A stretch of DNA of 64,000 nucleotides from Candidatus Eiseniibacteriota bacterium (GTDB lineage: Bacteria > Eisenbacteria > RBG-16-71-46): the NCBI GenBank assembly GCA_963707915.1, contig OY970178.1, positions 701,821-765,820 on the forward strand. Direction: 5' to 3'. The position numbers and the translations under genes are program-made. Positions 5,900 through 61,786 of this stretch are shown piece by piece. The notes beneath the pieces were generated by a model that saw nothing but the letters and a program-made list of their open reading frames with translations, did no database searches and was not told where the DNA came from. Within the stretch, counting starts at the first letter, position 1. Each line of letters opens with the position of its first letter.

Positions 5900-6153
5900 T
5901 GGGAGCAGCGGGCGCCAGGGTCTCCCGGGACCGGGCGCCCGCTGGACCGGCGTCTCCGGCCGCCCGGGGGACAGCACCCGGACCCGCGGACGATACCGCC
6001 ATTCCGCAACCCCCCCGGCTCCACGTCGTGCGCGATGCCCGGCCGCGTTCGCTCCGGCTCGGCCGAAAGGGCGGCCGAACCGCGGACTGCGGGAGCCCGG
6101 CCCGTGGTACGGTCCCTGCATTCGCCGTAGCGGCCCTGGGCCAGGAGCTCTCC

Positions 6154-7485
6154 GTGACTTCATCCGCGACGACGTCCAACGAGTCCATCCCCAAGCGGGT
6201 CGTGCTGGTCGACTTCGACTGGCGCGACGCCGACCTGATGCCCGAGCTGCTGGCGCGGCCGGGGCTCTCGGTACGCCTGGTGGCGGGCCCGGCGGGGGAC
6301 GGGCCGGGGCTGAAGATGGCCGAGCTCTGCGAGCTGCCGCGCACCACGGACCTGGCGGACCTGACCCGCGAGATCTTCGATCTGGCCATCGTGAGCGAGC
6401 GGAGCCCGCGGCGCACGCAGGTCGAAGGCCTGCTGCTCGCGCTGGGCACCCCCTGCGTCTCGCCCGAGTCCCTGCTGCACGGGACCGACCTGGAGCACGC
6501 CCACACCCCCGGCGTCGAGGCGCCGCTCGCACTGCACGCGATCGCGCTGGAGAACGCCCTGGGCGGAGCGGAGTTCGATGCGCTGATCGAGCACGCGCTC
6601 CCGGACATCGGCGAGGGCGGTACGACCGCCCCGCGGGAGGTAGCGCCCATCGGACGCTCCGAGCTGCAGGTGCGAAGCCTCGCGGAGTTCCCCTCGATCG
6701 AGGACCGGCAGGGGCTCGAGCGGGCGCTCGCCGATCTCGCCAACGGCACCGGGGCGCGGTCGGCCGAGATGCGCGCGGGCCGCTCCGGAGCGGTCCAGTT
6801 GCTGGCGCGCGTCGGGGAAGAGGACACGCTGCTCGCCGGCCTGATCGACCTCGCCTTGAGCGAGAACACGCCCCAGGTGATCACGCGCCTGACGGGGCCG
6901 CAGGAGGGCAAGGCCTGGGGGGCGTGGCCGTTCCGCACCACGCGCAGCCACGGAGTGATCGCGGCCGCCGCCATCGACCCGGCCTCGGGCTGGACGACGT
7001 GGCAGCAGACCGTCGAGGACCTGCGCCAGGCCTGGGACCAGCGCGACCGCGAACAGGTGGTCCCGGCCTTCCCGCTCGTGCCGGAGGACCAGCACGGGTG
7101 GCTCGACCTCGAGGGCTTCCGCTCCGCGCTCTCGCTCGCGGTCGCGCGCAACCAGCGCGACGGGCTCGCCTTCGCCGCGCACCACTTCGAGTTCGCGGAC
7201 CACGTGGAGGCGCTGGCCTGGCTGTGCGAGCGGCTCCCGTCACAGCTGCGCGACACCGACCGGCTGTTCCGGCCCCGGCAGAACGTCGTCGTGATGCTCA
7301 CGGCCTGCTCGCTCGTGGCCTTCGGACCGGTGCGGCGGCGCATCGCGGCGCTCTGGGAGGCGGCATGGCGGGAGGGCGGTGGCTCCCTGCCGGCCCCCGT
7401 GCCGGCCGAGGACCGCGTCCAGGTCGCCACGCCCGCCGAGGCGGAGCGCTTCCTGGCCACCGCCAGCGGCTGGCTGGCTCCGTAG
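6154..7485 (+). CDS. Hypothetical protein
   Basis: ORF 5899..7485; preferred start GTG 6154 preceded by AGGAG (6143-6147) with 6-nt spacer; the 5899-6153 portion translates as low-complexity Pro/Ala/Arg text; no family recognised. Confidence 0.5.
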   Translation: MTSSATTSNESIPKRVVLVDFDWRDADLMPELLARPGLSVRLVAGPAGDGPGLKMAELCELPRTTDLADLTREIFDLAIVSERSPRRTQVEGLLLALGTPCVSPESLLHGTDLEHAHTPGVEAPLALHAIALENALGGAEFDALIEHALPDIGEGGTTAPREVAPIGRSELQVRSLAEFPSIEDRQGLERALADLANGTGARSAEMRAGRSGAVQLLARVGEEDTLLAGLIDLALSENTPQVITRLTGPQEGKAWGAWPFRTTRSHGVIAAAAIDPASGWTTWQQTVEDLRQAWDQRDREQVVPAFPLVPEDQHGWLDLEGFRSALSLAVARNQRDGLAFAAHHFEFADHVEALAWLCERLPSQLRDTDRLFRPRQNVVVMLTACSLVAFGPVRRRIAALWEAAWREGGGSLPAPVPAEDRVQVATPAEAERFLATASGWLAP

Positions 7486-7641
7486 CCTCGAAGGCCGTCC
7501 CCCGGCGCGGCGACCGGCGATCCGCCGCCCGCCAGCCCATCCTTCCATCCCGCAGGACTGCGACGGCGCAGTTATCCACAGCTCGTTCTTGACCGGGCTT
7601 CCGGCGGTCGGGTATTGCTCCGCCCCTCAAGCGGAGGCCCG

Positions 7642-9381
7642 ATGGAAGGCTCCATCCGGCGGCTGCCGCCCGAGACCGCCTCCCGCATCGCGGCGGGGGA
7701 GGTCATCGAGCGGCCGCTCTCGGCCCTGAAGGAGATCCTCGAGAACGCGCTCGATTCCGGGGCGCGCTCGGTCGAAGTGCGCGTGGAGCGGGCGCTCGAC
7801 CACCTCTTCGCGGTCGCCGATGACGGCTCCGGCATCCGCGCCGACGAGCTGGACCTGGCGCTGGAACGTCACGCGACGAGCAAGCTCGCGCGCCTCGAGG
7901 ACCTCGACCGCCTCGCCTCCCTCGGGTTTCGCGGCGAGGCCCTGCCGAGCGTCGCGGCGGTGAGCCGGCTGCGGCTCACCAGCCGCCCCGCCGCCTCGGC
8001 GTCCGCCGCCTTCGTCGCGCTCGAGGGGGGCGCGGTCACCGACCGCGGCAGCGCGGCGCGTGCGCCCGGGACCACGGTCGAGGTCGCGGAGTTGTTCTAC
8101 AACACGCCGGCGCGGCGCAAGTTCCTGACCTCGCCGACCAGCGAGTTGCGCGCGGCCCTGCGGCTGCTGGAGGCCTACGCGCTGGCCTATCCGCAGGTCG
8201 GCTTCCGGCTGGTGGTGGACTCCAAGGAGCGGCTGCAGTGGCCCGCCGTGCCGGGGACGGGCCTCGCGTCCCGGCGCGACCGCGCCTCCGCGCTCTGGGG
8301 GGCCCGCCACGCCACGCAGTTGCTCGAGGTGGAGGCCGAGCGCGAGGGCATGAGGATCGAGGCGCTGCTCGGGCTTCCCGAGCACGCGCGCGCCACGCGC
8401 GAGGGGCAGATCTACATCGTGAACGGGCGCTGGATCCAGAGCCCCATGCTGGGTGCGGCGCTGCGGCAGGCCTACGGCAACCTGCTCCCGCCGGGACGCT
8501 TCCCCGCGGCGACGCTGTGGCTCACGGTGCCCCCCGAGCGACTCGACGTCAACGTGCACCCGACCAAGCGCGAGGTGCGCTTCGCGGACGAGGACCGCGT
8601 CTTCTCACTGGTCACCTCGGCCTGCTCCCGGCCCCTGTCCCAGGTCGCGCCGCCCTTCGCGGTCGTGGCCGGCGGCACGCGGGAGACCGGTGCGTACCCG
8701 GCGTGGTCCGAGCGCGTGCGCGAAGGGCCGCCGGAACAGACCTACCTCGGCCTCGAGCTCCCGGGTGCACCCGCGACGGCCGCCCCGCCGGCCGCGCCCG
8801 CCGCCGGGGCCGAGCCCGTGCTCTGGCAGCTCCACCAGACCTACGTGCTGGCCCCGGTGCGGGGCGGCCTGGTGATCATCGACCAGCACGCCGCGCACGA
8901 GCGCATCCTCTACGAGGAGGCGCTGGCGCGGCTGCAGGGCGAGCACGGGGTCGCGCAGCAGCTGCTCTTTCCGACGCTGGTGGACCTCACCAACGACCAG
9001 TTCGAGCTGCTGCTCGAGCTGGGCCCGTACCTCAAGCAACTGGGCTGGGACCTCTCCCTGCTGGGCCCGCCCACCGTGGTCGTCCAGGGCGTGCCCTCCG
9101 GGCTGCGCCACGAGCGCCCGGGCCAGCTCCTCCAGGACGTCCTCGACGGCATGAACGAGAGCACCGGCCGTTCCCCGGACGAGGACCTCTCGCACCGGCT
9201 CGCCGCGTCCTGGGCCTGCCATGCCGCGACCCGCGCCGGCGACCCGCTCACGCAGGAAGAGATGCGCTCGCTGGTGGACCGGCTGTTCGCCACCTCGCGG
9301 CCCCACGGCGACCCGCACGGGCGCGTCACCTTCGTGCGGCTCGACCTCGACGAGCTGCACCGGCGCTTCGGCCGGGCGTAG
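7642..9381 (+). CDS. mutL: DNA mismatch repair protein MutL
   Basis: N-terminal GHKL ATPase motifs (IAAGEVIERPLSALKEILENALDSGA, DDGSGI, GFRGEAL); C-terminal dimerisation region; ATG 7642 with GGAGG 5 nt upstream. Confidence 0.9.
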   Translation: MEGSIRRLPPETASRIAAGEVIERPLSALKEILENALDSGARSVEVRVERALDHLFAVADDGSGIRADELDLALERHATSKLARLEDLDRLASLGFRGEALPSVAAVSRLRLTSRPAASASAAFVALEGGAVTDRGSAARAPGTTVEVAELFYNTPARRKFLTSPTSELRAALRLLEAYALAYPQVGFRLVVDSKERLQWPAVPGTGLASRRDRASALWGARHATQLLEVEAEREGMRIEALLGLPEHARATREGQIYIVNGRWIQSPMLGAALRQAYGNLLPPGRFPAATLWLTVPPERLDVNVHPTKREVRFADEDRVFSLVTSACSRPLSQVAPPFAVVAGGTRETGAYPAWSERVREGPPEQTYLGLELPGAPATAAPPAAPAAGAEPVLWQLHQTYVLAPVRGGLVIIDQHAAHERILYEEALARLQGEHGVAQQLLFPTLVDLTNDQFELLLELGPYLKQLGWDLSLLGPPTVVVQGVPSGLRHERPGQLLQDVLDGMNESTGRSPDEDLSHRLAASWACHAATRAGDPLTQEEMRSLVDRLFATSRPHGDPHGRVTFVRLDLDELHRRFGRA

Positions 9382-47104: not shown

Positions 47105-48165
47105 TGTGGAGTCTCAGGACGTTGTTCTCACCCGGGGTCGCAACCGACTGAAGGGTGGTAGGCCGTCCAGACTACCGTGTGGACGTCTCTGGTTGTAGTA
47201 GCGAAGCCAGCGGGGCAGGACGCGGGCCCGGACCTCGGAGGTCAGGTAGGCGGCCCCGTAGGCCCACTCGCGGATCAGGGTCTGGATGAAGCGCTCGGCC
47301 TTGCCGTTCGTCCTCGGGCGGTAGGGCCGCGTACGTTTGTGGACCAAGCGCAGCCGTTCCACCTCGTGAGCAAAGCAGCGCGCGAGGTAGCCCGAGCCGT
47401 TGTCACTGAGGATTCGGCGGATGCGGATGCCCAAGGTGCGGAACCAGGCCACAGCACGACGCAGGAACGCTGCCGAGGTCACGCCGGTCTCGTCCCGCAG
47501 CACCTCGGCATAGGCGATCCGGCTGCGGTCGTCGATGGCGACGTGCACGTAGTCCCAGCCCACCCGATGACCCCGTCGCCGGCGGTCTCCGGTGATGCGG
47601 TGACCGTAGAAGCCACTGATCCGCCCCAGTTTCTTGACGTCGAAGTGGAGCAGGTCCCCCGGGCGACGATGCTGGTAGCGGTTCGCGGGCTCCTGCGGCT
47701 CGAGCTTCTGGAGCCGTTCCAGCCCGGCGCGTTTGAGCACCCGCGCCACCGTTGCCCGCGGACGCTTCAGGTCCCGGGCGATCTGCGGCCCGGTCATCCT
47801 CGTGCGCCGCAGCAGCAGGATCATCTCCCGCCATTCGATCGGGGTCGCGTGGGGGTGGCGCCGAGGCCGCGAGCTGCGGTCCTGCAGGCTGGCCGAGTCC
47901 TCGGCCTGGTAGCGGCCCAGCCACTTGTGGGCCGTCCGGCGGCTGATCCCTGCGGCCGTGGCCGCTCGGGTCACGCTCCAGCCCGACTCCCGTACCCGGC
48001 CAACAAGCAGTGCTCGACTGGCAGGGCAGGTCCGTGCTCCACTGTGGAGGTTCATCCGGGGTTCCTCGCTGGTCAGACGTTGACGGCTTCGAACACCACC
48101 AACATCTGTCAGAAGGACCCCGGTTGAACAGTCTCAACCTGTGAACAACCTAGTGAGACTCCACA
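47105..48165 (-). mobile_element. IS481-family insertion sequence, 1061 bp, apparently intact
   Basis: Imperfect terminal inverted repeats beginning TGTGGAGTCTCA (left 47105-47129 vs reverse complement of 48141-48165, about 20/25 identical); single DDE transposase ORF; 6-bp CCTAGG duplication. Confidence 0.8.
47114..48055 (-). CDS. IS481-family DDE transposase (integrase core domain)
   Basis: 313 aa; N-terminal HTH; rve-type catalytic core (HFDVKKLG...DNGSGY...RTNGKAERF). Confidence 0.9.
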   Translation of the reverse strand: MNLHSGARTCPASRALLVGRVRESGWSVTRAATAAGISRRTAHKWLGRYQAEDSASLQDRSSRPRRHPHATPIEWREMILLLRRTRMTGPQIARDLKRPRATVARVLKRAGLERLQKLEPQEPANRYQHRRPGDLLHFDVKKLGRISGFYGHRITGDRRRRGHRVGWDYVHVAIDDRSRIAYAEVLRDETGVTSAAFLRRAVAWFRTLGIRIRRILSDNGSGYLARCFAHEVERLRLVHKRTRPYRPRTNGKAERFIQTLIREWAYGAAYLTSEVRARVLPRWLRYYNQRRPHGSLDGLPPFSRLRPRVRTTS

Positions 48166-48246: not shown

Positions 48247-50052
48247 CTAGGCCGTCTCGCCGGGCCCCGCCACCTTCAGCCACGAGAACCACAGCGGGTG
48301 GTGCCGCTTGTACCAGCGCAGCACCTCGAGCAGCACCTTCTGCTGCTCGGGCGGGATCACCTCGGGCGGGATGCGATCGAAGTGGATGCGCATCTGCTGC
48401 TGGTCCAGGTACTCGATCGCCTCGGAGCACAGCGTCTGGAGCTCGTTGCGGATCCGGCCCGAGTCGGAGATCTTCACCGGCCGGGTGCGGAAGTCCTCGC
48501 CGTAGATGAAGCGGGTGAGCAGCGGGTTGAACACCAGCCGCGACACCCGGCGGTCCTCCATCAGGCGCAGGGTGAACAGCAGGCGCTTGTCGCCACGCGC
48601 CGTCGCCAGCCGCACCCCCACGCGGTAGGTGCCCGGCGCCGTCTCCACGACGCCCGCGGCGCCGGAGTAGGGGTCGTCGCGCATGTAGCCGGAGAGCGCC
48701 ACGACCTCCCAGCGCTTCTCGGGGAAGAAGTCGTCGGCGCCGATGACCGGCTTCTCGAGCGGGATCCCCGAGTCGCGGGCCTCGAGGATCAACCCGCGGT
48801 AGGCGGTCTGCCCGGCCTCGTCCACCGGATGCCCCAGCCGCGCGGCCAGCCGCCCGGCGAAGTCCGGGCCCTCCGGGTCGAGGTGCATGATGTGCTGTTC
48901 GGATTCGTAGGGCAGCTCGAACCTCGACGTGAACACCGCCAGCGAGGCCTCGAGGCCCAGCATCGGCGCCAGGCTCGCCGCCTGCATCGCCTCGGCCGAC
49001 GCCGCGTAGCCGTCGCACAGGAAGAGGTGCGACTGGCCGTCGCCGTCGGTCCACGCGCCGATCCGGTAGGTCGGGGCGTAGGTGCCGGACTCGTTGAAGG
49101 CCTTCATCCCCGAGGGCAGCACCCAGCCGTCCTCGACCACGTGCGCGCCGGCCGCCCGCCACTCGTCCCAGAGCTTCCCGATGCGCACCTCGCGGCTCTT
49201 CCCGCCCAGGGTCCAGACGTGGACGTTCCCGCGCTGCAGCCCGGGATAGGCCGCCTCGATGACCTCCATGACCCGCCCCCGCGGCGTACGGTAGTCGATC
49301 AACAGCGACTGCTCGGCGGCCTTCTCGACGACGACGCGGGGGAGGAACAGGTTCCCGACGTAGCCTTCGTAGGGGCGCCTCATCCGCAGCGGCTGGTCGA
49401 ACAGGTGCAGCACCGTCAGCGGCCCGGTGAGCTCGCCCTTCGCGAAGCGGGAGGTGTTCTCCAGCGTGTCGATGGCGGCGCCCCAGATGGTGATGCCGGC
49501 CGCCTTCACCTCGCGGTAGAAGGTGTCCCAGCCGTACTCCGGGAAGTTCAGCATCCGCGTGACCCGCTGCTCGAGCCAGCGCGCCACCTGCGGCCGGGCG
49601 TAGATGCGGCCGTAGCCGAGCTGGGGGTTGGAGCCCATCTCGGGCGTCTCCCCGGCCTTGGGCATGAGGCCCTCGCCCAGGCACACCATGATCGCGTGGT
49701 TCTCCGGCAGGTGCCGCGAGGCGAACCACAGGCCCTCGCTCATGGCGTAGGCGGAGATCGCGTCGGCGTCCTTCTTGACCTGGTTGAGCCCGGTCTTGTC
49801 CTTGCCCTGGCCCTCGCCGAAGCGGCCGAAGAGCTGGGTGCCCAGCGCGGTGACCGCCACCGTCATGGCCATCAGCCGCTCCATGCGGCCGTCCAGGAAG
49901 GAGATCTCGCCGGTGAACTCGGCCACGGGCTCGCCCCGGATCCACTCCACCGAGACGTCCTCGAGCCACAGGTGCAATCGACCCAGGATGGGACGGGTGT
50001 CGAAGGCCCACTGCGCGATCCGGTCCCGCTTGAGTCGATCCGCCTCGCTCAT
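48247..50052 (-). CDS. Large GlpX-like (class II fructose-1,6-bisphosphatase superfamily-like) protein with about 200-aa C-terminal extension; function unknown
   Basis: 641-aa ORF; preferred start ATG 50052 (601 aa); segments paralleling GlpX motifs as I recall them (IMVCLGEGLMPKAGETPEMG; WGAAIDTLENT; CDGYAASAEAMQAASLAPMLG). Confidence 0.45.
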   Translation of the reverse strand: MSEADRLKRDRIAQWAFDTRPILGRLHLWLEDVSVEWIRGEPVAEFTGEISFLDGRMERLMAMTVAVTALGTQLFGRFGEGQGKDKTGLNQVKKDADAISAYAMSEGLWFASRHLPENHAIMVCLGEGLMPKAGETPEMGSNPQLGYGRIYARPQVARWLEQRVTRMLNFPEYGWDTFYREVKAAGITIWGAAIDTLENTSRFAKGELTGPLTVLHLFDQPLRMRRPYEGYVGNLFLPRVVVEKAAEQSLLIDYRTPRGRVMEVIEAAYPGLQRGNVHVWTLGGKSREVRIGKLWDEWRAAGAHVVEDGWVLPSGMKAFNESGTYAPTYRIGAWTDGDGQSHLFLCDGYAASAEAMQAASLAPMLGLEASLAVFTSRFELPYESEQHIMHLDPEGPDFAGRLAARLGHPVDEAGQTAYRGLILEARDSGIPLEKPVIGADDFFPEKRWEVVALSGYMRDDPYSGAAGVVETAPGTYRVGVRLATARGDKRLLFTLRLMEDRRVSRLVFNPLLTRFIYGEDFRTRPVKISDSGRIRNELQTLCSEAIEYLDQQQMRIHFDRIPPEVIPPEQQKVLLEVLRWYKRHHPLWFSWLKVAGPGETA

Positions 50053-50278
50053 GACGCGTCCCTTTCCGGCGGGTTCGCCCCGACCGCTTGCATCCCGTCC
50101 CTGGCCCCGTCCACGCCGTCCCGGGAGCCGCCCGCGCGGGCCCGCTCCCGGTGGGGCACCCACCGAAGCCACCGCAGGCTAGCAGGACCGCGAAAGCCGG
50201 GGCAAGGACGACCGGATCGCGGACATCGCGCGTGGACGCGGCCCGCGCGCCCCTGCAGGACGAGAGGCGAGACGGAAC

Positions 50279-50935
50279 TCAGCGAGTCGAGCCTGGCCCG
50301 CCGTTCCAGCGCGGCGCGGGGAGGATGAACTCGCGTGCGACGTTCCACCCGGCGTTGAGGAGCAGGCTGTACGCCCCGCTCAGGAGGCCATCGGCGTACG
50401 TATACCGTGCCGGGTAGAGCGTGGTCGTCGTCACCACCGGCCCCACGAAGGGCGCGAGCGTCTTGCCGGGGGAGAAGCGCGCGGCCCCGCTCCGGTCGCG
50501 CGCCATGACCGTCATCGACGCCGCATGCCACAGGCGCGGGCCGAAACCGTCACGCGGGGAGCGGTAGTACTGCGCGTCCTGCCGCATCGCCGCCATGCTG
50601 AGCGAAAGCGAGGTCTCGCTCACGAAGGTCGTGAGCGAACCTGCACCGAAGCGCCGCCCGAAGCCCCGTCCGTCGGTGTCCCACTCGGCGGGCTCGTCCG
50701 TCACCCAGTGCCGCCACGAAGCGCCGACGAGATTGCCGGCGATCGCGGACGGGCCGACGGCATTGCTCGCCCACGCGCGGAACTGCACCCGCGGGGAGGG
50801 GAAGACGTACCCGGCGGGATCCGTGGCCCGCAGCGAGGACGAGTCGGGCGCCGCCGGCGCCACGCCGAGCGCGCGGCCGGGCATCAGGGCCCCTGCAAGC
50901 ACTGCGATCACGACGGTCCACCGCGGCCACGCCAT
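50279..50935 (-). CDS. Hypothetical secreted protein
   Basis: 218 aa from ATG 50935 with signal peptide (MAWPRWTVVIAVLAGALMPGRALG); the annotated 403-aa ORF upstream portion is low complexity. Confidence 0.45.
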   Translation of the reverse strand: MAWPRWTVVIAVLAGALMPGRALGVAPAAPDSSSLRATDPAGYVFPSPRVQFRAWASNAVGPSAIAGNLVGASWRHWVTDEPAEWDTDGRGFGRRFGAGSLTTFVSETSLSLSMAAMRQDAQYYRSPRDGFGPRLWHAASMTVMARDRSGAARFSPGKTLAPFVGPVVTTTTLYPARYTYADGLLSGAYSLLLNAGWNVAREFILPAPRWNGGPGSTR

Positions 50936-51260
50936 CGCCGACTCCTCGCGCGTCCCTCGCCGGGTCGGCGGGGAGGTCCGTGCCCCGCGCCCGACCGGCA
51001 CTGCGGGAGCATCTTCGCGCATCGGCTCCCGAGTGCCAAGCGGCCATCCCGGGTCGAGCTCCGTCGGAGCCTGTCCGGGACCCGTGCAGCTTCCGGATTG
51101 AACTCGCTCCGGCGCGGGTGCTAGCCTCCGCACGGTTCTGGATGCAACCTCGTGCCACCTCAACGTCGCGGGCGCGGGGGAGTGGTTGTCGTGTGCCGCG
51201 GCCGCGCCTCGACCCACCGCGCAGCGATGCGCCGCCGCGATCACCTGGGATGGCGGATCC

Positions 51261-53519
51261 ATGATGACCGCACGCATCGTGATGCCGTTGCTGCTCCGGC
51301 TGCTCTGCGCCGTGGCGATCGTGGCGCCTCCGTTGGCCCACCCGGACGACGCCGGAGCCGTCCCACCGGACCGGCCCCGCATCGGACTGGCGCTCAGCGG
51401 CGGCGGCGCCCGTGGCGCGGCCCACATCGGCGTGCTGAAGGTGCTCGAGCGGCACCGCATCCCGGTCGATCTCATCGCCGGCACCAGCATGGGCGCGCTG
51501 GTCGGCGGGCTCTACGCCTCCGGGCTTTCGCCCGCCCAGCTCGACAGCGTCGTCTCGGAGACCGACTGGGCGGAGGCGTTCGCGGACAACATCCCCCGGG
51601 GCGAACGCTCGTTCCGCCGCAAGCGCGACGACGACCTCTACCTCGTCAAGCACAAGCCCGGGTTCCGCGGCGGGCAACTGCTCCTGCCGCCCGGCATCCT
51701 CGACGGCCATCGCATCGACCTGCTGCTCAAGCGGCTGTCCCTGCCGGTCACCTCGGTGCGCGACTTCGACCAGCTCAGCATCCCGTACCGCGCCGTCGCC
51801 GCCGACATCGTGACCGGCGAGGCGGTGGTGCTCGACCACGGCGACCTGGCGCTCGCCATGCGCGCCAGCATGTCCATCCCCGTCGCCTTCGCGCCCCGGG
51901 AGATCGACGGCCGCCTGCTGGTGGACGGCGGCATCGTGAACAACTTCCCCATCGACGTCGTGCGCCGGATGGGGGCGGACGTCATCATCGCGGTGGACAT
52001 CGCCACGCCGCCCACGGACCGCGAGCACCTCTACTCGCTGCCCGCCATCTCCGGCCAGCTCGCCACGCTCGGCTCGGAGCAGAACAAGCGGCAGCAGATC
52101 GCCTCGCTGGCCGAGGGTGACGTGTTCATCCGGCCCGAGCTCGGCTCGATCACGGTGGCGTCCTTCGACCGCGCCGCCGAGGCCGTGCCGATCGGCGAAC
52201 GCGCGGCCGAGGCCGTGCTGGGCCGCCTCGAGCGCCTCGCCCTCCCGCCCGACGAGTACGCCGCGTACCGCGACCGCCGGGCGGAACGCGCCGCGCACGG
52301 ACCGCCCCCCACCCTCGCCGCGACCGTGTTCGTCAACCGTTCCCGGCTGGCCGACGAGGTCATCGCCGATCGCCTCGAGGCGCCGCCCGGCGGGCCCGTC
52401 CGCGTCGCGCGCATCGAGGAGGGGTTGAACCAGATCTACGGGCTCGAGCTGTTCGAGTCGGTGTACTACGACATCGCCCCCACGCCCCGCGGCGACGTGA
52501 TGACCGTCACCGCCCGCGAGCGCGCCTGGGGCCCCAACTACGTGCAGGGCGGCATCGCGGTGTTCGAGGACTTCGAGGGCCCGAACTTCAATCTCGCCGT
52601 GGCCTACAGCCGCACCGCGGTCAACCGCCTGAACGGGGAGTGGCGCACCGGCGTGCAGGTGGGGCAGGAGCCCACCGCGTGGACCGAGTTCTACCAGCCG
52701 CTCGACACCGGCCTGCGCAAGTTCGTCCATCTCGACGTGCTGGCGGCGGAGCGGACGATGAACCTGTTCGACCCGCGCGGCCACAAGCTCTCCGAGCTCG
52801 GCATCACGCGCTTCGGCGCCACGCTGGCCGCCGGGAGGGAGATCGGGACGTGGGGCGAGCTGCGATTCGGCGTGGTGCGCGAAGGCGGCGTCATCCGCGT
52901 CCAGGTGGGCGACCCCGCGCGCCCGGAGAGCCGCTACGACACCGGCGAAGCGTTCGCCCAGTACTTCGTCGACAAGCTCGACGAGCTCGCATTCCCTCAT
53001 CGGGGCGCGAGCCTGCGGGCGCGCGTCTCGGCCGGGCGCGATGCGCTCGGCTCCACCGTGAACTACGAGCAGGCCAGCCTCGAGGGCTCGCTGGCCGCCA
53101 CGCGGGGCCTGCTCACCGGCGGGTTGGGCGCGCTGTTCGGCACCACGCTGGAGAGCGACGCGCCGCTCGAGAAGCGCTTCGTCCTCGGCGGCCTCGGCCA
53201 GCTGTCCGGGCTCGAACAGGACGAGTTGATCGGACAGCACGCGCTGATGCTGCGCGCGACGCTCTACCGCCGCCTCACGCGTTCGCAGGTGGTCCGCGCC
53301 TACGCGGGGCTCTCGGCCGAGTACGGGAACGTGTTCCAGTCGCGGTCGGCCATCGGCCTCGAGCACGGGATATCGACCGGCAGCGTGTTCCTCGGTTTCG
53401 AGACGCTGCTCGGCCCCCTTTGCCTGGCCTACGGCCGGGCCGAGGGCGGTCGCAGCAACTACTACCTCACCCTGGGCCAGCCGGTCGGCGGCCGGCGGCC
53501 CGGATTCGGGGCCCGCTGA
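51261..53519 (+). CDS. Patatin-like phospholipase fused to C-terminal Omp85/surface-antigen beta-barrel (PlpD-like)
   Basis: Oxyanion hole GGGARG, nucleophile elbow GTSMG, catalytic DGG (LVDGGIVNNFP); C-terminal about 400 aa beta-rich ending in aromatic-rich strands; N-terminal signal. Confidence 0.8.
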   Translation: MMTARIVMPLLLRLLCAVAIVAPPLAHPDDAGAVPPDRPRIGLALSGGGARGAAHIGVLKVLERHRIPVDLIAGTSMGALVGGLYASGLSPAQLDSVVSETDWAEAFADNIPRGERSFRRKRDDDLYLVKHKPGFRGGQLLLPPGILDGHRIDLLLKRLSLPVTSVRDFDQLSIPYRAVAADIVTGEAVVLDHGDLALAMRASMSIPVAFAPREIDGRLLVDGGIVNNFPIDVVRRMGADVIIAVDIATPPTDREHLYSLPAISGQLATLGSEQNKRQQIASLAEGDVFIRPELGSITVASFDRAAEAVPIGERAAEAVLGRLERLALPPDEYAAYRDRRAERAAHGPPPTLAATVFVNRSRLADEVIADRLEAPPGGPVRVARIEEGLNQIYGLELFESVYYDIAPTPRGDVMTVTARERAWGPNYVQGGIAVFEDFEGPNFNLAVAYSRTAVNRLNGEWRTGVQVGQEPTAWTEFYQPLDTGLRKFVHLDVLAAERTMNLFDPRGHKLSELGITRFGATLAAGREIGTWGELRFGVVREGGVIRVQVGDPARPESRYDTGEAFAQYFVDKLDELAFPHRGASLRARVSAGRDALGSTVNYEQASLEGSLAATRGLLTGGLGALFGTTLESDAPLEKRFVLGGLGQLSGLEQDELIGQHALMLRATLYRRLTRSQVVRAYAGLSAEYGNVFQSRSAIGLEHGISTGSVFLGFETLLGPLCLAYGRAEGGRSNYYLTLGQPVGGRRPGFGAR

Positions 53520-53520
53520 G

Positions 53521-56016
53521 ATGGGCGGCTCACCGGCTTCCGACCGCCCGCGCCGGCCACGTGCGTGGCGGGCATTCGCGCCCCTGCTGGCCACGGCGCT
53601 GCTCGCGCCCCCCGCGTCCGCATACTCGGACCGTGCCGGCACCGACGTCGTCATGGACGCCCCCTGGCGGAGCGTGCGGGACTACATCCCCGTGCTGTTC
53701 TTCTTCCCGCAGTTCGAGGGCGGGCGCCGGGTGGAGCGGATCCGGATCTTCGAATGCGTCGCCGGCGTCCCGACCGGCCCGGCGGTGGTCACCGACGCGG
53801 CAGCCAGTCCCGACACGCTCCACGGCGCGACCTTCGTCGGTCCGCTCGGCGAGGCCCGCGGCGGGCTGGACGCCGGGGAGCGCGTCACCAGCTTCTGGCA
53901 CTACATCGTGCGCGTCCCGCACGCGGCGCTCTCCGGGCACGCGACGCCCGACGTCCACGAGCTGCGCGCCGAGGTCGATTGGACGCGGCCCGGGCTGCTC
54001 GGAGTCCGGCACTTCCGCAGCTTCCGCGTGGTGCGCGTCCTCGTCGACCCGGCGCGGTTCCCCTCCCTGCACCCGGAGGACCGCTACCTCGACACCCACG
54101 TCCATACCATCGCCGAGCAGACCACCTCCGCCGCGCTCGACGTGGACGGCGGGAGCAAGGCCTACGGCGGGCCCGTGGTCATGCTGCTCGAGTCGGCCTA
54201 CGCCCTGGGGCTGGTGGAGACGCAGCCGCGGGACGGCAACTGGGGAGCGTACCGGGACAGCATCGTGGTCACCGACCACAATCTCTTCTACTCGCGCGAG
54301 CCGTACGACGCCGGCGTGGCGCCACGCTTCGGCCCCACCGCGTCCACCGACGGGCACGCGGGCGAGGCCGCGTGGTACCGCGCCAACCTCGGGCGGCTGG
54401 CGGGGGAGGAGATCACGCTGCGACGCGGCTCCAACCAGGATGGCTCGCTCGCGCCGAACCTCGGCCACCACCTGCTGGCCTACGGCACGCGTCACTTCGA
54501 GGGGACGTGGCACGGCGGGCGCTTCCTGACCTCCCGGCTCGAGAACCCCAACACGCTGGAGACGGTCCTGGCGGGCATGAAGTCCGCCGGCGGCCCCGGC
54601 TTCCTCTACGCGGCCCACCCGAACCTCGACGGCTTCGTCTGGCCGGCCGAGTACTACGCGCAGGGGATCGGCTTCCCGCCCTACAACTCGCTCGCCGGCC
54701 CGCTGGTGGATTCCAGCGGCACGGAGTTCCTGTTCAAGGGCTCGGAGGTGTGGAACACCAGGATCGCACGGGTCGCGCGCGACAGCGGGCGCCTGCCCGC
54801 CTCGAGCGCCTTCGACGCGATGGACCCGTTCCCCGGGGGGCCCGAGGCGCAACGCTTCCGCCCGGTCGCGTGGGACGGCGAGTTGATGCGCTCGCTCGAC
54901 ACCTTCCTCGGGCTGCTCGGCCGCGGACTCCGCTTCTCGTTCAAGGAGGCCCCCGCGGACCGCTTCATCCGCAAGCTGTACATGACCGCCGGTTCCGACG
55001 CTCACGGCGACTTCAACTACTCCGACGAGGTCTCCGCCACGGTCGTGCCCTACTCCGGCGCGCTCCACGACAACGCCTACGCGCGGGCCCGCACCTACCT
55101 GCTGGCGCACGACCTCCCCGCGGACTCGCGCGGAGCGCTCGAGGCGCTGCGCAAGGGCAATGCCCTGATCACGGACGGGCCGGTGTTCGAGTACCAACTG
55201 GATGCGGATGGACGGCACGACCCCGATGCGGGAGCGGCCCGCTGGCACGACGCGGCCGTCCGCTGGGAGAACCCGGACGGCCGGATCGGCGGGTCCGGGG
55301 CGTTCGACGGCGCACGCACGATGCTGGTGCCGCTGCCGGGCGACGGCGTCTGGATCCGCAGCCGGTGGAAGCGGTCCGTGACCCCCGGCGCCGGGGACGT
55401 CACCCGGTTCAAGTTCGACCGCGTGACGGGCACCGCGCGGGACTCGTTCCACGTGGCCGCGGGCCCCGAGGGCGTCGAGGACTCCCGGCCGCTGCCGCGG
55501 GCGCTGGACAGTCTCGCCGCGCTGGTCGCCACCGCGCGCGACCTCGACCGGGACGAGCGCTGCATCGCGAACCCGGTGTGGGTCGCCCCGGTCCGCATCG
55601 AGATCGCGAGACCGGAGGGCGGGGGGCAGGCTCGAGCCGGGGTGGCGCTGCCCGCCGGGACCTTCCGGGTCACGTTCCGCTTCCCGATCTCCATGTCCGC
55701 GGCGCCCGGCACCCGCGCCTGCCTGCGGCCGCTGGACGCGCGCGGGAACAGCACGGATCCCGAGATCGAGCTGGCCGCGGACCCCGGCTGGCAGGAGGAT
55801 GACGGCGTCGGCTCCGCCCGCTACACTGCGGTCAACGTCGCGGACGTGGCCGATCCGCCCGGGGACTGGGACGCCGACTCGCACGCCGGCGTGTCGGGCG
55901 TCCGCTCCTTCGTCGTATACCTGAAGGGCCCGGCGGATCTGCATGGCAACCGCTTGAACGACGTCGCGAGGGCCTTCGCGGTCACGGGGCCGCGGACGTC
56001 GCCAGCGGCGCCGTAG
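53521..56016 (+). CDS. Large PHP-domain-like (CehA/McbA-type metallophosphoesterase) protein, probably secreted
   Basis: 831 aa; PHP motif I-like YLDTHVHT and terminal PHP motif-like GSDAHGD with long insertions between; ATG 2 nt after patatin stop. Confidence 0.55.
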   Translation: MGGSPASDRPRRPRAWRAFAPLLATALLAPPASAYSDRAGTDVVMDAPWRSVRDYIPVLFFFPQFEGGRRVERIRIFECVAGVPTGPAVVTDAAASPDTLHGATFVGPLGEARGGLDAGERVTSFWHYIVRVPHAALSGHATPDVHELRAEVDWTRPGLLGVRHFRSFRVVRVLVDPARFPSLHPEDRYLDTHVHTIAEQTTSAALDVDGGSKAYGGPVVMLLESAYALGLVETQPRDGNWGAYRDSIVVTDHNLFYSREPYDAGVAPRFGPTASTDGHAGEAAWYRANLGRLAGEEITLRRGSNQDGSLAPNLGHHLLAYGTRHFEGTWHGGRFLTSRLENPNTLETVLAGMKSAGGPGFLYAAHPNLDGFVWPAEYYAQGIGFPPYNSLAGPLVDSSGTEFLFKGSEVWNTRIARVARDSGRLPASSAFDAMDPFPGGPEAQRFRPVAWDGELMRSLDTFLGLLGRGLRFSFKEAPADRFIRKLYMTAGSDAHGDFNYSDEVSATVVPYSGALHDNAYARARTYLLAHDLPADSRGALEALRKGNALITDGPVFEYQLDADGRHDPDAGAARWHDAAVRWENPDGRIGGSGAFDGARTMLVPLPGDGVWIRSRWKRSVTPGAGDVTRFKFDRVTGTARDSFHVAAGPEGVEDSRPLPRALDSLAALVATARDLDRDERCIANPVWVAPVRIEIARPEGGGQARAGVALPAGTFRVTFRFPISMSAAPGTRACLRPLDARGNSTDPEIELAADPGWQEDDGVGSARYTAVNVADVADPPGDWDADSHAGVSGVRSFVVYLKGPADLHGNRLNDVARAFAVTGPRTSPAAP

Positions 56017-56062
56017 CCGGAGGCCCGCCAGCGCGGCGGGCACCCCGGGCGCCCCGGAGACT

Positions 56063-56722
56063 GTGGAGACCACTCGAATGAGATCCAGGATTCCCACCCG
56101 TCGGATGTGGACGCTCGCCGCGATCGGCCTGCTGTGCGTCGCGATGGCCGTGAACCTCCAGGGTTGCACCGCGGTCGGTTTCGCGGTCGGCGCCGCCGCC
56201 GATGCGCAGGAAGGCAGCGGCGGTCCCGCGCTGCTGCTGAGTGTGAAGACCGGTCGCCCGGTGACGTTGACGCTGTGGGACGGCCGCTCGCTCGAAGGCC
56301 GCTTCGCTGGATGGTCGCGCGATACCGCGGTCGCGATCGCGGCGGCCGACTCGATCTATCCGCGGGGAGCGACGGTGCGGCTCGCGACCCGGGACGGCGA
56401 GCTCCGCATACCGGCGGAGCGCATCGCCAAGGTCACGATCTCGGTCAACAGCCGCAAGTTCGTCGGGCTGCTGATCGGGCTCGCGGCGGACGCGCTGGTG
56501 ATCTCGACGCTCCGGTCGGCGTGGCATCCGACTCCGCTCGGTTGCGAGGGGGATAACCTCGGCTCCCCCTGGGCTCGGGTCGCCCCGGCCGGCGCACCCG
56601 CATCGGACCGACTGCCAGGGCGGTCCGTAGCGCGCGGCAGCTCCGTGTGGCCGTCGTCGGAATCCCCGGCGATGGGCTTCCGCCCGCGGGCTCGAGCCGG
56701 ACGAGGTGGAGGCCGTGGCTAG
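56063..56722 (+). CDS. Hypothetical lipoprotein
   Basis: Signal peptide with lipobox-like LQGC; 219-aa ORF with low-complexity C-terminal tail, true end uncertain. Confidence 0.45.
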   Translation: METTRMRSRIPTRRMWTLAAIGLLCVAMAVNLQGCTAVGFAVGAAADAQEGSGGPALLLSVKTGRPVTLTLWDGRSLEGRFAGWSRDTAVAIAAADSIYPRGATVRLATRDGELRIPAERIAKVTISVNSRKFVGLLIGLAADALVISTLRSAWHPTPLGCEGDNLGSPWARVAPAGAPASDRLPGRSVARGSSVWPSSESPAMGFRPRARAGRGGGRG

Positions 56723-56876
56723 AGCATCGTGGCTGAAGGTCGGCGCCGGGTTGAGCTTCTTCATGGCGGCATGCCAGGCGGTGATCTCGCACCTGGTGTT
56801 CCTGGCGGCAGGGATCGCGTACACGGTGGGGACCGTGGTCAACTGGCGAACCATGAAGTCCAATCGATAGGCCGCC

Positions 56877-57629
56877 ATGTCCAGACCGCGGACGATACTT
56901 CTTCTCGGCGGCACCGGGCGCACCGGCCGGCGCGTGCTGGAGCAGCTCCTGGGTCGCGGCTTCGCGGTACGCGCCATCGTGCGCTCGCGCGCCGGGCTGC
57001 CAGCGGGCGCACTGGCGAACCCCGACCTCACGGTGATCGACGCCGACCTGCTCTCCCTGACCGACGAGGACCTGCAACGTCACCTTCGCGGCTGCGACGC
57101 CGTGATCTCCTGCCTGGGCCACTTCCTCAGCCTCAAGGGGGTCTTCGGCCCACCGCGCGATCTCGTCACCCGGGCCACCTCGACGCTGTGCCGGACGATC
57201 GAAACGCTGGGGCCCGCCGCGCCGGTCAAGTTCGTCCTGATGAACAGCGTCTCGGTCCATCGCCCCGGGGGGCTCGACGCGCGACGCGGCGCCGTCGAGA
57301 GGGCGCTCCTCTGGATGCTGCGCGGCGTGCTCCCGCCGGCCCTCGACAACCAGCGCGCGGCGGACTTCCTGCGCGAGAGCGTCGGGGCGCTCCATCCATC
57401 CATCCAGTGGACGGTGGTCCGCCCCGACTCGCTGCTGGAAGGCGACGTGACGCGCTACACGCTGCACCAGGGGCTGGTGAGCAGCCTGTTCAAGCCCGAC
57501 AGCACGAACATCGCCAACGTCGCCCACTTCATGTGCGAGTTGGTGGCGAACCCGGCGACGTGGCGGGAATGGAACGCCGGCTTCCCCGTGATCATCAACG
57601 CGGCCGCGTCGGGCGGCACGGCCCCGTAG
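56877..57629 (+). CDS. NAD(P)-binding Rossmann-fold protein (NmrA/SDR-like)
   Basis: N-terminal LLLGGTGRTGRRV dinucleotide-binding motif; 250 aa. Confidence 0.7.
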   Translation: MSRPRTILLLGGTGRTGRRVLEQLLGRGFAVRAIVRSRAGLPAGALANPDLTVIDADLLSLTDEDLQRHLRGCDAVISCLGHFLSLKGVFGPPRDLVTRATSTLCRTIETLGPAAPVKFVLMNSVSVHRPGGLDARRGAVERALLWMLRGVLPPALDNQRAADFLRESVGALHPSIQWTVVRPDSLLEGDVTRYTLHQGLVSSLFKPDSTNIANVAHFMCELVANPATWREWNAGFPVIINAAASGGTAP

Positions 57630-61186: not shown

Positions 61187-61786
61187 ATGAAGACGGCACT
61201 TGCTCTCGCGTTGGGAATGCTCCTCGCATCCTCCGCACTTGCCGAGCCTCCGCAAAGGAAGAATGAGGTCTTCATCGGAGTCGGCTCTGGCCCCGTCGTC
61301 TTCGTCCTGCAGGCGATTGGGGACGTGTTCGTCGACGTCGCATTCCACGGCGGGGGCAGCTACCGGACCGAGGGTTCGGGCGGCGGGCAATTCGTGGCCG
61401 GATACCAGCATCGGTTCAACCGTTTGCTGGGGGCTGGCGCGAGCGGATCCTGGGCCAAGATCAGCGAGGATCTGTACCGGGAGGGCGAGAACCAGAAGCT
61501 CTCCACGACCACCCGCCAGATGGTGACGATTCAGGTGGACGGGCGCCTGCACTGGGTCGACTGGCGTTGGGGGGGGCTCTACTCGAACGTCGGCCTGGGC
61601 TTCGCCGCGCGCCACTACGAGTACACCGACGATGAGTACCACGTCTCGTTTTCGCACGACTGGAGCCACGCCGCCGTGAACCTGATCCCGCTGGGCGTCC
61701 GCCTCGGGGGCGACGTCGCCGGGCACCTCGAGATCGGCGGCGTCACGAACAGCTGGGTCACCGCCGGGCTCTCCTACCGCTTCTAG
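61187..61786 (+). CDS. Small outer-membrane beta-barrel protein (OmpW/OmpA-like), C-terminal Phe
   Basis: Signal peptide MKTALALALGMLLASSALA; alternating hydrophobic beta-strand pattern; ends ...SYRF; RBS gaaggagg. Confidence 0.6.
   Translation: MKTALALALGMLLASSALAEPPQRKNEVFIGVGSGPVVFVLQAIGDVFVDVAFHGGGSYRTEGSGGGQFVAGYQHRFNRLLGAGASGSWAKISEDLYREGENQKLSTTTRQMVTIQVDGRLHWVDWRWGGLYSNVGLGFAARHYEYTDDEYHVSFSHDWSHAAVNLIPLGVRLGGDVAGHLEIGGVTNSWVTAGLSYRF

Follow-up and report, generated by a model that had tools for sequence, protein, structure and literature searches.

A conserved gene pair in Eisenbacteria

Does the tight coupling of a phospholipase gene to a gene for a large, exported PHP-like protein reflect a shared role in the cell envelope, or only an accident of gene order? 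The question is raised by two adjacent forward-strand genes in a 64,000-nucleotide (nt) stretch of a Candidatus Eiseniibacteriota genome (contig OY970178.1), referred to here as the window. Open reading frame (ORF) A (51261..53519; ATG at 51261, TGA at 53517-53519) codes for a 752-amino-acid (aa) PlpD-like patatin-Omp85 (PL-Omp85) protein, a predicted outer membrane phospholipase, and ORF B (53521..56016) codes for an 831-aa exported multidomain protein that is predicted to be a PHP-fold metallohydrolase of an unnamed family. We find that the pair forms a true operon, confined to a single branch of Eisenbacteria, and its best reading is a lineage-specific, co-translated pair of envelope hydrolases. 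An earlier reading made from the sequence alone (the sequence-only reading) had singled out these genes, and the positions, the 2-nt step from stop to ATG, the length of 831 aa, and the DTHVHT and GSDAHGD motifs that it gave are all as it described.

The G+C content of the window is about 72%, and long ORFs turn up in all frames; because in such DNA the window's ORF list even includes a 1034-aa ORF antisense to the locus, ORF length alone is no proof of a gene. ORFs A and B are real genes, as judged from domain matches, about 100 homologs, and a confident structure model. Their 752-aa and 831-aa products, together with the 218-aa product of the divergent upstream gene up218 (see below), have identical sequences in a public protein collection, where each is a singleton at 90% identity. 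The two genes meet at a coupling junction, TGA-G-ATG (53517..53523, forward strand), in which a single spacer base (G at 53520) places the ATG of ORF B (53521) 2 nt past the last base of the ORF A stop codon.

The association can be followed in both directions. Wherever an Eisenbacteria-type locus extends far enough upstream, the gene immediately preceding the ORF B homolog is a patatin-Omp85 gene with 62-75% identity to ORF A (loci L001/L018, L002/L003/L017, L004, L010, L011, L012, L014, L015, L016, and L021, with just the last 54 patatin codons visible in L016). Conversely, when metagenome contigs were scanned with ORF A, L091-L094 (73-76% identity) were found to have ORF B directly downstream, and every patatin-Omp85 gene at least 66% identical and with readable downstream DNA is followed by ORF B; this count leaves out L095 (73%), whose contig ends 76 bases past the patatin gene. 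The pair is present in at least 14 Eisenbacteria loci, and conservation in other genomes, on which the sequence-only reading had staked its case, is thus evident, yet the pairing is lineage-specific. Because the genes outside the module vary between loci, the adjacency is not residual synteny.

The junction itself is also conserved. The TGA-N-ATG arrangement, with one nucleotide between stop and start, is present in the window and in L002, L004, L010, L011, L014, L015 (with a GTG start), and L021; L012 has two spacer bases, and in L090 the genes overlap by 1 nt. In two loci the gene behind the patatin gene is a fusion to an S8 (subtilase) peptidase: L090 (protein P0023, 1120 aa) and L001, in which an apparent gap of 825 nt encodes an S8 domain (Pfam, 1.3e-19) in a reading frame unlike that of the module. 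We note that in L001, a long-read Eisenbacteria assembly, the S8 domain (5205-5999) and the PHP module (6001-8460) are in different frames; this change of frame is either an assembly frameshift or a truly split or decaying fusion, with the intact fusion being present in L090.

ORF A is predicted to encode a PlpD-like patatin-Omp85 protein

The identification of ORF A as a PlpD-like protein, proposed in the sequence-only reading, is borne out by profile matches to both halves of the protein. The Pfam Patatin family matches aa 43-233 (E=7.3e-37), and the lipase domain aligns at aa 38-332 (51372..52256, forward strand) with the crystal structure of the passenger domain of Pseudomonas aeruginosa PlpD (PDB 5fqu; E=7.1e-85). 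The Omp85 family (PF01103) passes its cut-off of 24 bits with a score of 29.3, matching aa 508-658 only (52782..53234, forward strand; profile positions 52-217 of 325), and this segment represents part of the predicted Omp85 beta-barrel. The approximately 175 aa between lipase and barrel (333-507) leave room for the single POTRA domain of PL-Omp85 proteins, for which there is no Pfam match at E <=0.01. A signal peptide, MMTARIVMPLLLRLLCAVAIVAPPLAH, is predicted at the N terminus as read from the sequence. The motifs GGGARG (47-52; oxyanion loop), GTSMG (74-78; nucleophile), and DGG (222-224) predict a Ser76-Asp222 catalytic dyad, with dyad and oxyanion loop both intact; with loop, nucleophile motif, and DGG aspartate all present, ORF A therefore looks active. 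By these sequence criteria ORF A is a PL-Omp85 protein, and the order of its parts (signal peptide, patatin lipase domain, linker, Omp85 barrel) is that of PlpD and FplA; it differs from these in coming from an uncultured candidate phylum and in being coupled to a downstream gene for an exported hydrolase.

What is known of PlpD bears directly on where ORF A is likely to act. PlpD is an outer membrane homodimer and a phospholipase A1, a plpD mutant builds up phospholipids, and its patatin domain remains periplasmic and is not secreted (Hanson et al. 2024, PMC11116518). The view of patatin-Omp85 fusions as type Vd secreted lipases, adopted in the sequence-only reading, is therefore outdated. 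Hanson et al. also contend that the barrels of PL-Omp85 proteins have no lateral gate and that not even the attached patatin domain is translocated, and they propose a role for PlpD in outer membrane lipid homeostasis, stating its exact function as unknown (PMC11116518). We found no mention of an operon partner of PlpD in that study (PMC11116518).

ORF B is predicted to encode an exported PHP-fold protein

ORF B is not recognized by standard profiles: searches against Pfam, including PHP (PF02811), gave no family at E up to 5, and searches against PDB, with either the single sequence or a 60-sequence profile, gave nothing at E up to 10. An AlphaFold (AF2) model built with a 60-sequence alignment as input is, however, confident (mean predicted local distance difference test [pLDDT], 89.1; predicted template modeling score [pTM], 0.90). 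In this model, aa 1-34 are disordered, aa 41-175 are all beta, aa ~186-560 form an alpha/beta domain, and aa ~600-822 form two further all-beta domains. The first 34 residues (53521..53622, forward strand), which have low pLDDT, correspond to the signal-like region that the sequence-only reading had remarked on; they read as a signal peptide with predicted cleavage at ASA|YSDRAGT, and both the cleavage context, AxA|Y[SA]DRAGT, and the mature N terminus are kept in orthologs. The segment that follows (aa 41-175; 53641..54045, forward strand) is a predicted beta-sandwich with a DAPWR motif, in which D46, A47, P48, W49, and R53 are nearly invariant in the 60-sequence alignment; this domain is also found in CehA/McbA-like relatives. 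The central domain (aa ~186-560; 54076..55200, forward strand) is a PHP-type alpha/beta barrel with long insertions, carrying DTHVHT (aa 191-196; 54091-54108) and GSDAHGD (aa 491-497; 54991-55011), and is followed by the two predicted C-terminal beta-sandwich domains (aa ~600-822; 55318..55986, forward strand).

The model, together with the pattern of invariant residues, supports a PHP fold for ORF B, as the sequence-only reading had supposed from the motifs, and the refutation that this reading had tied to the lack of such a fold does not apply. According to the model, the core is a PHP-fold, distorted (beta/alpha)7 barrel. Twelve residues are invariant in all 60 aligned sequences, down to 31% identity (D191, H193, H195, E199, D252, H253, E297, H317, H331, H366, D493, and H495), and these candidate ligands match the HxH / H / E / H / H / DxH pattern of the PHP trinuclear metal site; residues were provisionally assigned to individual metal sites by analogy with YcdX. 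The stretch from DTHVHT to GSDAHGD covers about 300 aa in ORF B, compared with about 185 aa separating the corresponding ligands of YcdX. Characterized members of the PHP family mostly hydrolyze phosphoesters. ORF B differs from the small PHP phosphoesterases of known structure (3e38, TM0559/2anu, 3o0f, YcdX, histidinol phosphatase, RNase AM, and the PHP domain of Pol III alpha) in having no detectable sequence similarity to them, in being exported, and in having three added beta-sandwich domains.

Relationship of ORF B to CehA/McbA metallohydrolases

The closest characterized relatives of ORF B appear to be metallohydrolases of the CehA/McbA type. The NCBIfam model for this family (NF038032) matches ORF B locally, over ~80 residues (aa 485-566), at 29.6 bits against a cut-off of 80; ORF B is below the curated threshold and by that criterion is not a member. 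The weakest matches in our first search with ORF B (P0094-P0103, about 650-770 aa) match NF038032 across all 315 profile positions, and one of them, P0099, passes the cut-off with 81 bits. When the ORF B family was compared by hhalign with an alignment of these CehA/McbA-like relatives, the two matched over 556 columns (probability, 100%; E=4.2e-58; ORF B aa 33-688), spanning the N-terminal sandwich, the PHP barrel, and the next domain, with DAPWR, DTHxHT, TDH, GEEITL, AAHP, GSDAHGDFNY, TDGP, and TNPxW as common motifs. On the strength of these alignments, we consider ORF B to be a remote, larger homolog of the CehA/McbA-like metallohydrolases. A tblastn search of plasmids with ORF B, looking for McbA or CehA, found no relative.

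This relationship changes what may be expected of ORF B. CehA and McbA are carbaryl hydrolases, acting on a carbamate ester; a review describes three essential histidines in the PHP-like domain of McbA and a periplasmic location for the Pseudomonas C5pp enzyme (PMC8292978). The two resemble ORF B in being large and exported and in having a PHP-like catalytic domain, and a hydrolase of this kind accordingly has precedent; ORF B differs in having an extra C-terminal beta-sandwich, and nothing points to carbamates as its substrate. Because the characterized relatives cleave a carbamate ester, phosphoesterase activity, as proposed in the sequence-only reading, is not assured for ORF B and is one possibility only.

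Size and distribution of the ORF B family

The first search yielded 103 homologs of ORF B. An exhaustive profile search of 1.84 billion representatives expanded the family to 595 proteins at E <=1e-3 (162 at E <=1e-30), each representing a cluster at 50% identity. Among the distant members, most are 1300-3100 aa in length, and the module begins near residue 500-700. A census with a home-made S8 hidden Markov model located an S8 domain in 57 of the 83 newly found full-length representatives (69%), and in 70/169 of all full-length proteins fetched, always N-terminal to the ORF B module. Sampled family members have Peptidase_S8, a Fervidolysin pro-domain, and CARDB on the N-terminal side of the module, and others have a ricin lectin, a type IX secretion system (T9SS) C-terminal domain, or IPTL-CTERM; judging from these architectures, the module in the wider family typically lies within secreted or surface proteins.

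Among GTDB species representatives, 229 loci encode relatives of ORF B, mainly in Planctomycetota, Wallbacteria, Riflebacteria, and Myxococcota, with some in Proteobacteria, and the close relatives (54-75% identity) are labeled Candidatus Eisenbacteria (Eiseniibacteriota), a candidate phylum. Individual Planctomycetota metagenome-assembled genomes carry at least four ORF B-module paralogs each (L044, L050, L065, and L079 in one; L055, L077, L084, and L089 in another), which suggests an expanded family of secreted enzymes in that phylum. We also note that S8-fused proteobacterial homologs (L006 3751-6985, L009 3483-6924, L028 ~4094-5134, L024, L025, and L058) keep a neighbor of their own, which belongs to a secreted protein family unrelated to patatin; its members contain cysteines, are 364 or 679 aa long, and show weak matches to fn3 and faint ones to crystallin. 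With this different neighbor in Proteobacteria, and none shared by the Wallbacteria and Planctomycetota loci, a universal partner for the ORF B family is ruled out.

Expression of the pair

By comparing upstream regions across loci, we identified an extended -10-like promoter element, GTGCTAGCCT (51118..51127, forward strand), 134 nt upstream of the ORF A start. The motif GTGnTAnnnT is present in 13/13 loci, 66-159 nt before the approximate patatin-Omp85 start, and is generally the sole forward-strand copy in a locus of 10-15 kb (a rate of 0.048 per kb per strand); GTGNTAGNNT occurs once in the 64-kb window. The element is a putative promoter; a scan of 50000-57000 for the sigma-70 consensus gave nothing. 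As the junction between A and B leaves no space for a second promoter, the simplest inference is that both genes share one transcript. Two other types of control were considered: sigma-54 promoters are unsupported, with two loose matches in 11 upstream regions, and a structured 5' leader or riboswitch is likewise unsupported, the leader being about 130 nt with a fold z of +1.0 and no Rfam match near the locus.

Possible roles of the pair

A plausible explanation for these patterns is that the two enzymes act one after the other. The extended -10-like element would drive one transcript, and translation of ORF B would be coupled to that of ORF A; the lipase, anchored in the outer membrane, would strip acyl chains from phospholipids, and ORF B would then cut the remaining ester, which might be a head-group phosphodiester or phosphomonoester, or a residual carboxyl ester. 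The pair would thereby serve the turnover or scavenging of membrane lipid. Our confidence differs among the parts of this explanation. The identities of the components and the conserved operon are very probably right. The explanation as a whole, mechanism included, is put forward tentatively, as one that could well be wrong, and slightly more doubtful again is the idea that the two enzymes share lipid-derived substrates within the envelope, this sharing being something that we infer. Its support comes from the conservation of the pairing, the junction, and the promoter-like element amid differing flanks; from the PlpD patatin domain being a periplasm-facing phospholipase A1 linked to outer membrane lipid homeostasis (PMC11116518); and from McbA, a carbamate ester hydrolase like CehA, being periplasmic (PMC8292978).

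Several observations weigh against sequential lipid breakdown. Each partner is also found alone elsewhere: ORF B and up218 are both missing from the vicinity of four sister patatin-Omp85 genes with 53-63% identity (L096-L099), whose proteins are collinear with the paired ones, without indels; ORF B homologs of Planctomycetota, Wallbacteria, and Proteobacteria have no patatin neighbor. The domains to which the module is fused in the wider family (S8 subtilase with pro-domain, CARDB, ricin lectin, T9SS C-terminal domain, and IPTL-CTERM) suggest that it is located outside the cell, and an S8 domain is present in some of the paired Eisenbacteria genes too. Were ORF B extracellular, it might not share a compartment with the periplasm-facing patatin domain. 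Finally, we are not aware of any PHP-fold enzyme that takes part in lipid catabolism.

An alternative is that the products are co-regulated but independent exo-hydrolases, in which case ORF B would resemble its subtilase-fused relatives as a degradative enzyme that is secreted or found at the surface. The operon would then provide a lipase together with a metallohydrolase (and, in the S8 forms, a protease) for scavenging organic matter or prey debris, with no common pathway intermediate and no physical contact between the two. The N-terminal S8 peptidase in 57 of 83 new representatives, the other domains of secreted proteins in the relatives, and the S8-fused forms downstream of Eisenbacteria patatin genes (L090 and L001) all favor it, as do the occurrence of each family without the other and the absence of paired-clade-specific indels from both proteins, other than a 7-aa loop in ORF B. 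Nonetheless, the PlpD patatin domain is periplasmic (PMC11116518), and external substrates would be out of its reach unless the topology differs in Eisenbacteria; moreover, maintenance of a 1-nt junction over 54-78% protein identity, amid shuffled flanks, suggests selection beyond loose co-regulation. We regard independent action as rather unlikely, if still a serious competitor to sequential lipid breakdown. A neutral gene order, inherited in a narrow clade and with no functional meaning, is a good deal less probable: the pairing is indeed limited to one lineage, and GC-rich genomes often show short intergenic distances and overlaps, but the pair is retained in at least 14 loci with differing other neighbors, and the junction geometry and promoter-like element are conserved where the surrounding DNA is not.

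The gene order suggests a further possibility, in that an Omp85-family gene directly followed by a coupled gene for an exported, cargo-like protein resembles the TpsB-TpsA operons of two-partner secretion (TPS; type Vb). ORF A, through its Omp85 barrel and putative POTRA region or through outer membrane remodeling or vesiculation, could export, anchor, or release ORF B, which has a signal peptide and none of the outer membrane sorting tags of its relatives in other phyla, though the family is typically extracellular. Yet ORF B has no TPS or haemagglutination-activity domain (no Pfam match) and no beta-helix, ORF A carries an enzyme domain of its own, and the predicted beta-sandwich at the N terminus of ORF B is no less conserved in relatives that are unpaired or fused to S8. 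The paired clade has no specific insertion in ORF A and just the 7-aa loop in ORF B, with nothing that could mark an interaction domain, and the case made against a lateral gate and translocation in PL-Omp85 barrels (PMC11116518) runs counter to export by ORF A. Export or anchoring of this sort is improbable, only marginally less so than neutral adjacency, and we give the same low weight to the related idea that PL-Omp85 proteins have a dedicated co-translated partner in Eisenbacteria, with the Omp85/patatin scaffold docking, exporting, releasing, or activating ORF B. A role in anti-phage defence, with patatin as the effector in the manner of cyclic-oligonucleotide-based antiphage signaling systems (CBASS), was suggested by weak local matches of the patatin N terminus to CBASS and defence lipase models, but these span only about 55 residues at the oxyanion/GxSxG region (29.9 bits against a cut-off of 200). 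With a signal peptide and Omp85 barrel in ORF A, no PADLOC match for ORF B or up218, and no cyclase or sensor gene nearby, the architecture effectively rules out defence, which has the least chance by far of the roles considered.

Implications for PL-Omp85 function

Both proteins are from known superfamilies, and nothing here is categorically new. What is new is the conserved pairing, for which our literature searches found no paper, in agreement with the sequence-only reading, which had not recognized patatin-Omp85 plus ORF B as a described system; the delineation of an unnamed family of exported PHP-fold modules (about 600 clusters) that is undetected by Pfam and usually fused to a subtilase; and a concrete handle on PL-Omp85 function. 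The physiological role of PL-Omp85 proteins (PlpD, FplA) was reopened by the 2024 finding that the lipase is periplasmic, and a coupled partner enzyme provides a testable hypothesis, though in one phylum. The pairing points to two candidate roles, sequential lipid breakdown and partner-dependent localization; a docking or export partnership, if true, would be an unrecognized two-partner arrangement and the first genetic clue to the role of PL-Omp85. The ORF B family also extends a poorly understood branch of the PHP superfamily, that of CehA/McbA. The significance is tempered by the restriction of the pairing to one uncultured lineage and by the occurrence of each partner alone elsewhere.

Neighboring genes

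The genes flanking the pair differ in how closely they are associated with it. Upstream, and divergently oriented, is up218 (50279..50935, reverse strand), which codes for an exported 218-aa protein of an orphan family with a signal peptide and six weakly hydrophobic helices. It accompanies the pair in most loci (not in L090), and its family includes 46 proteins with no Pfam match, for which structure prediction gives a confident six-helix bundle. Of the two flanking genes pointed out in the sequence-only reading, this one is real and conserved; the other, on the downstream side (56063..56722, forward strand), codes for a putative 219-aa lipoprotein with a lipobox-like LQGC and no family match, and is rejected as part of the module, having no homolog in any related locus. 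A 641-aa ORF beyond up218 (48247..50172, reverse strand), with no Pfam or NCBIfam match, is rejected for the same reason. Farther upstream, a 313-aa ORF (47114-48055, reverse strand) shares 26% identity with an L007 gene annotated by Pfam as an rve-type integrase/transposase, and is probably an insertion sequence element about 2 kb from the module, with the 641-aa ORF between.

We also observed that four loci encode, directly after the ORF B homolog and in either orientation, a protein of ~188 aa (L001 8486-9055; L002 8539-9105, reverse strand; L010 ~8500-9084, reverse strand; L015 ~5380-5940, reverse strand), with a weak, below-cut-off match to OMP_b-brl (PF13505, 22 bits). It is also encoded near an unpaired patatin-Omp85 gene (L096 938-1465), and the window contains a 35%-identical copy about 5 kb downstream of the pair (61187-61783, forward strand). 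This protein may be a loosely associated small outer membrane protein.

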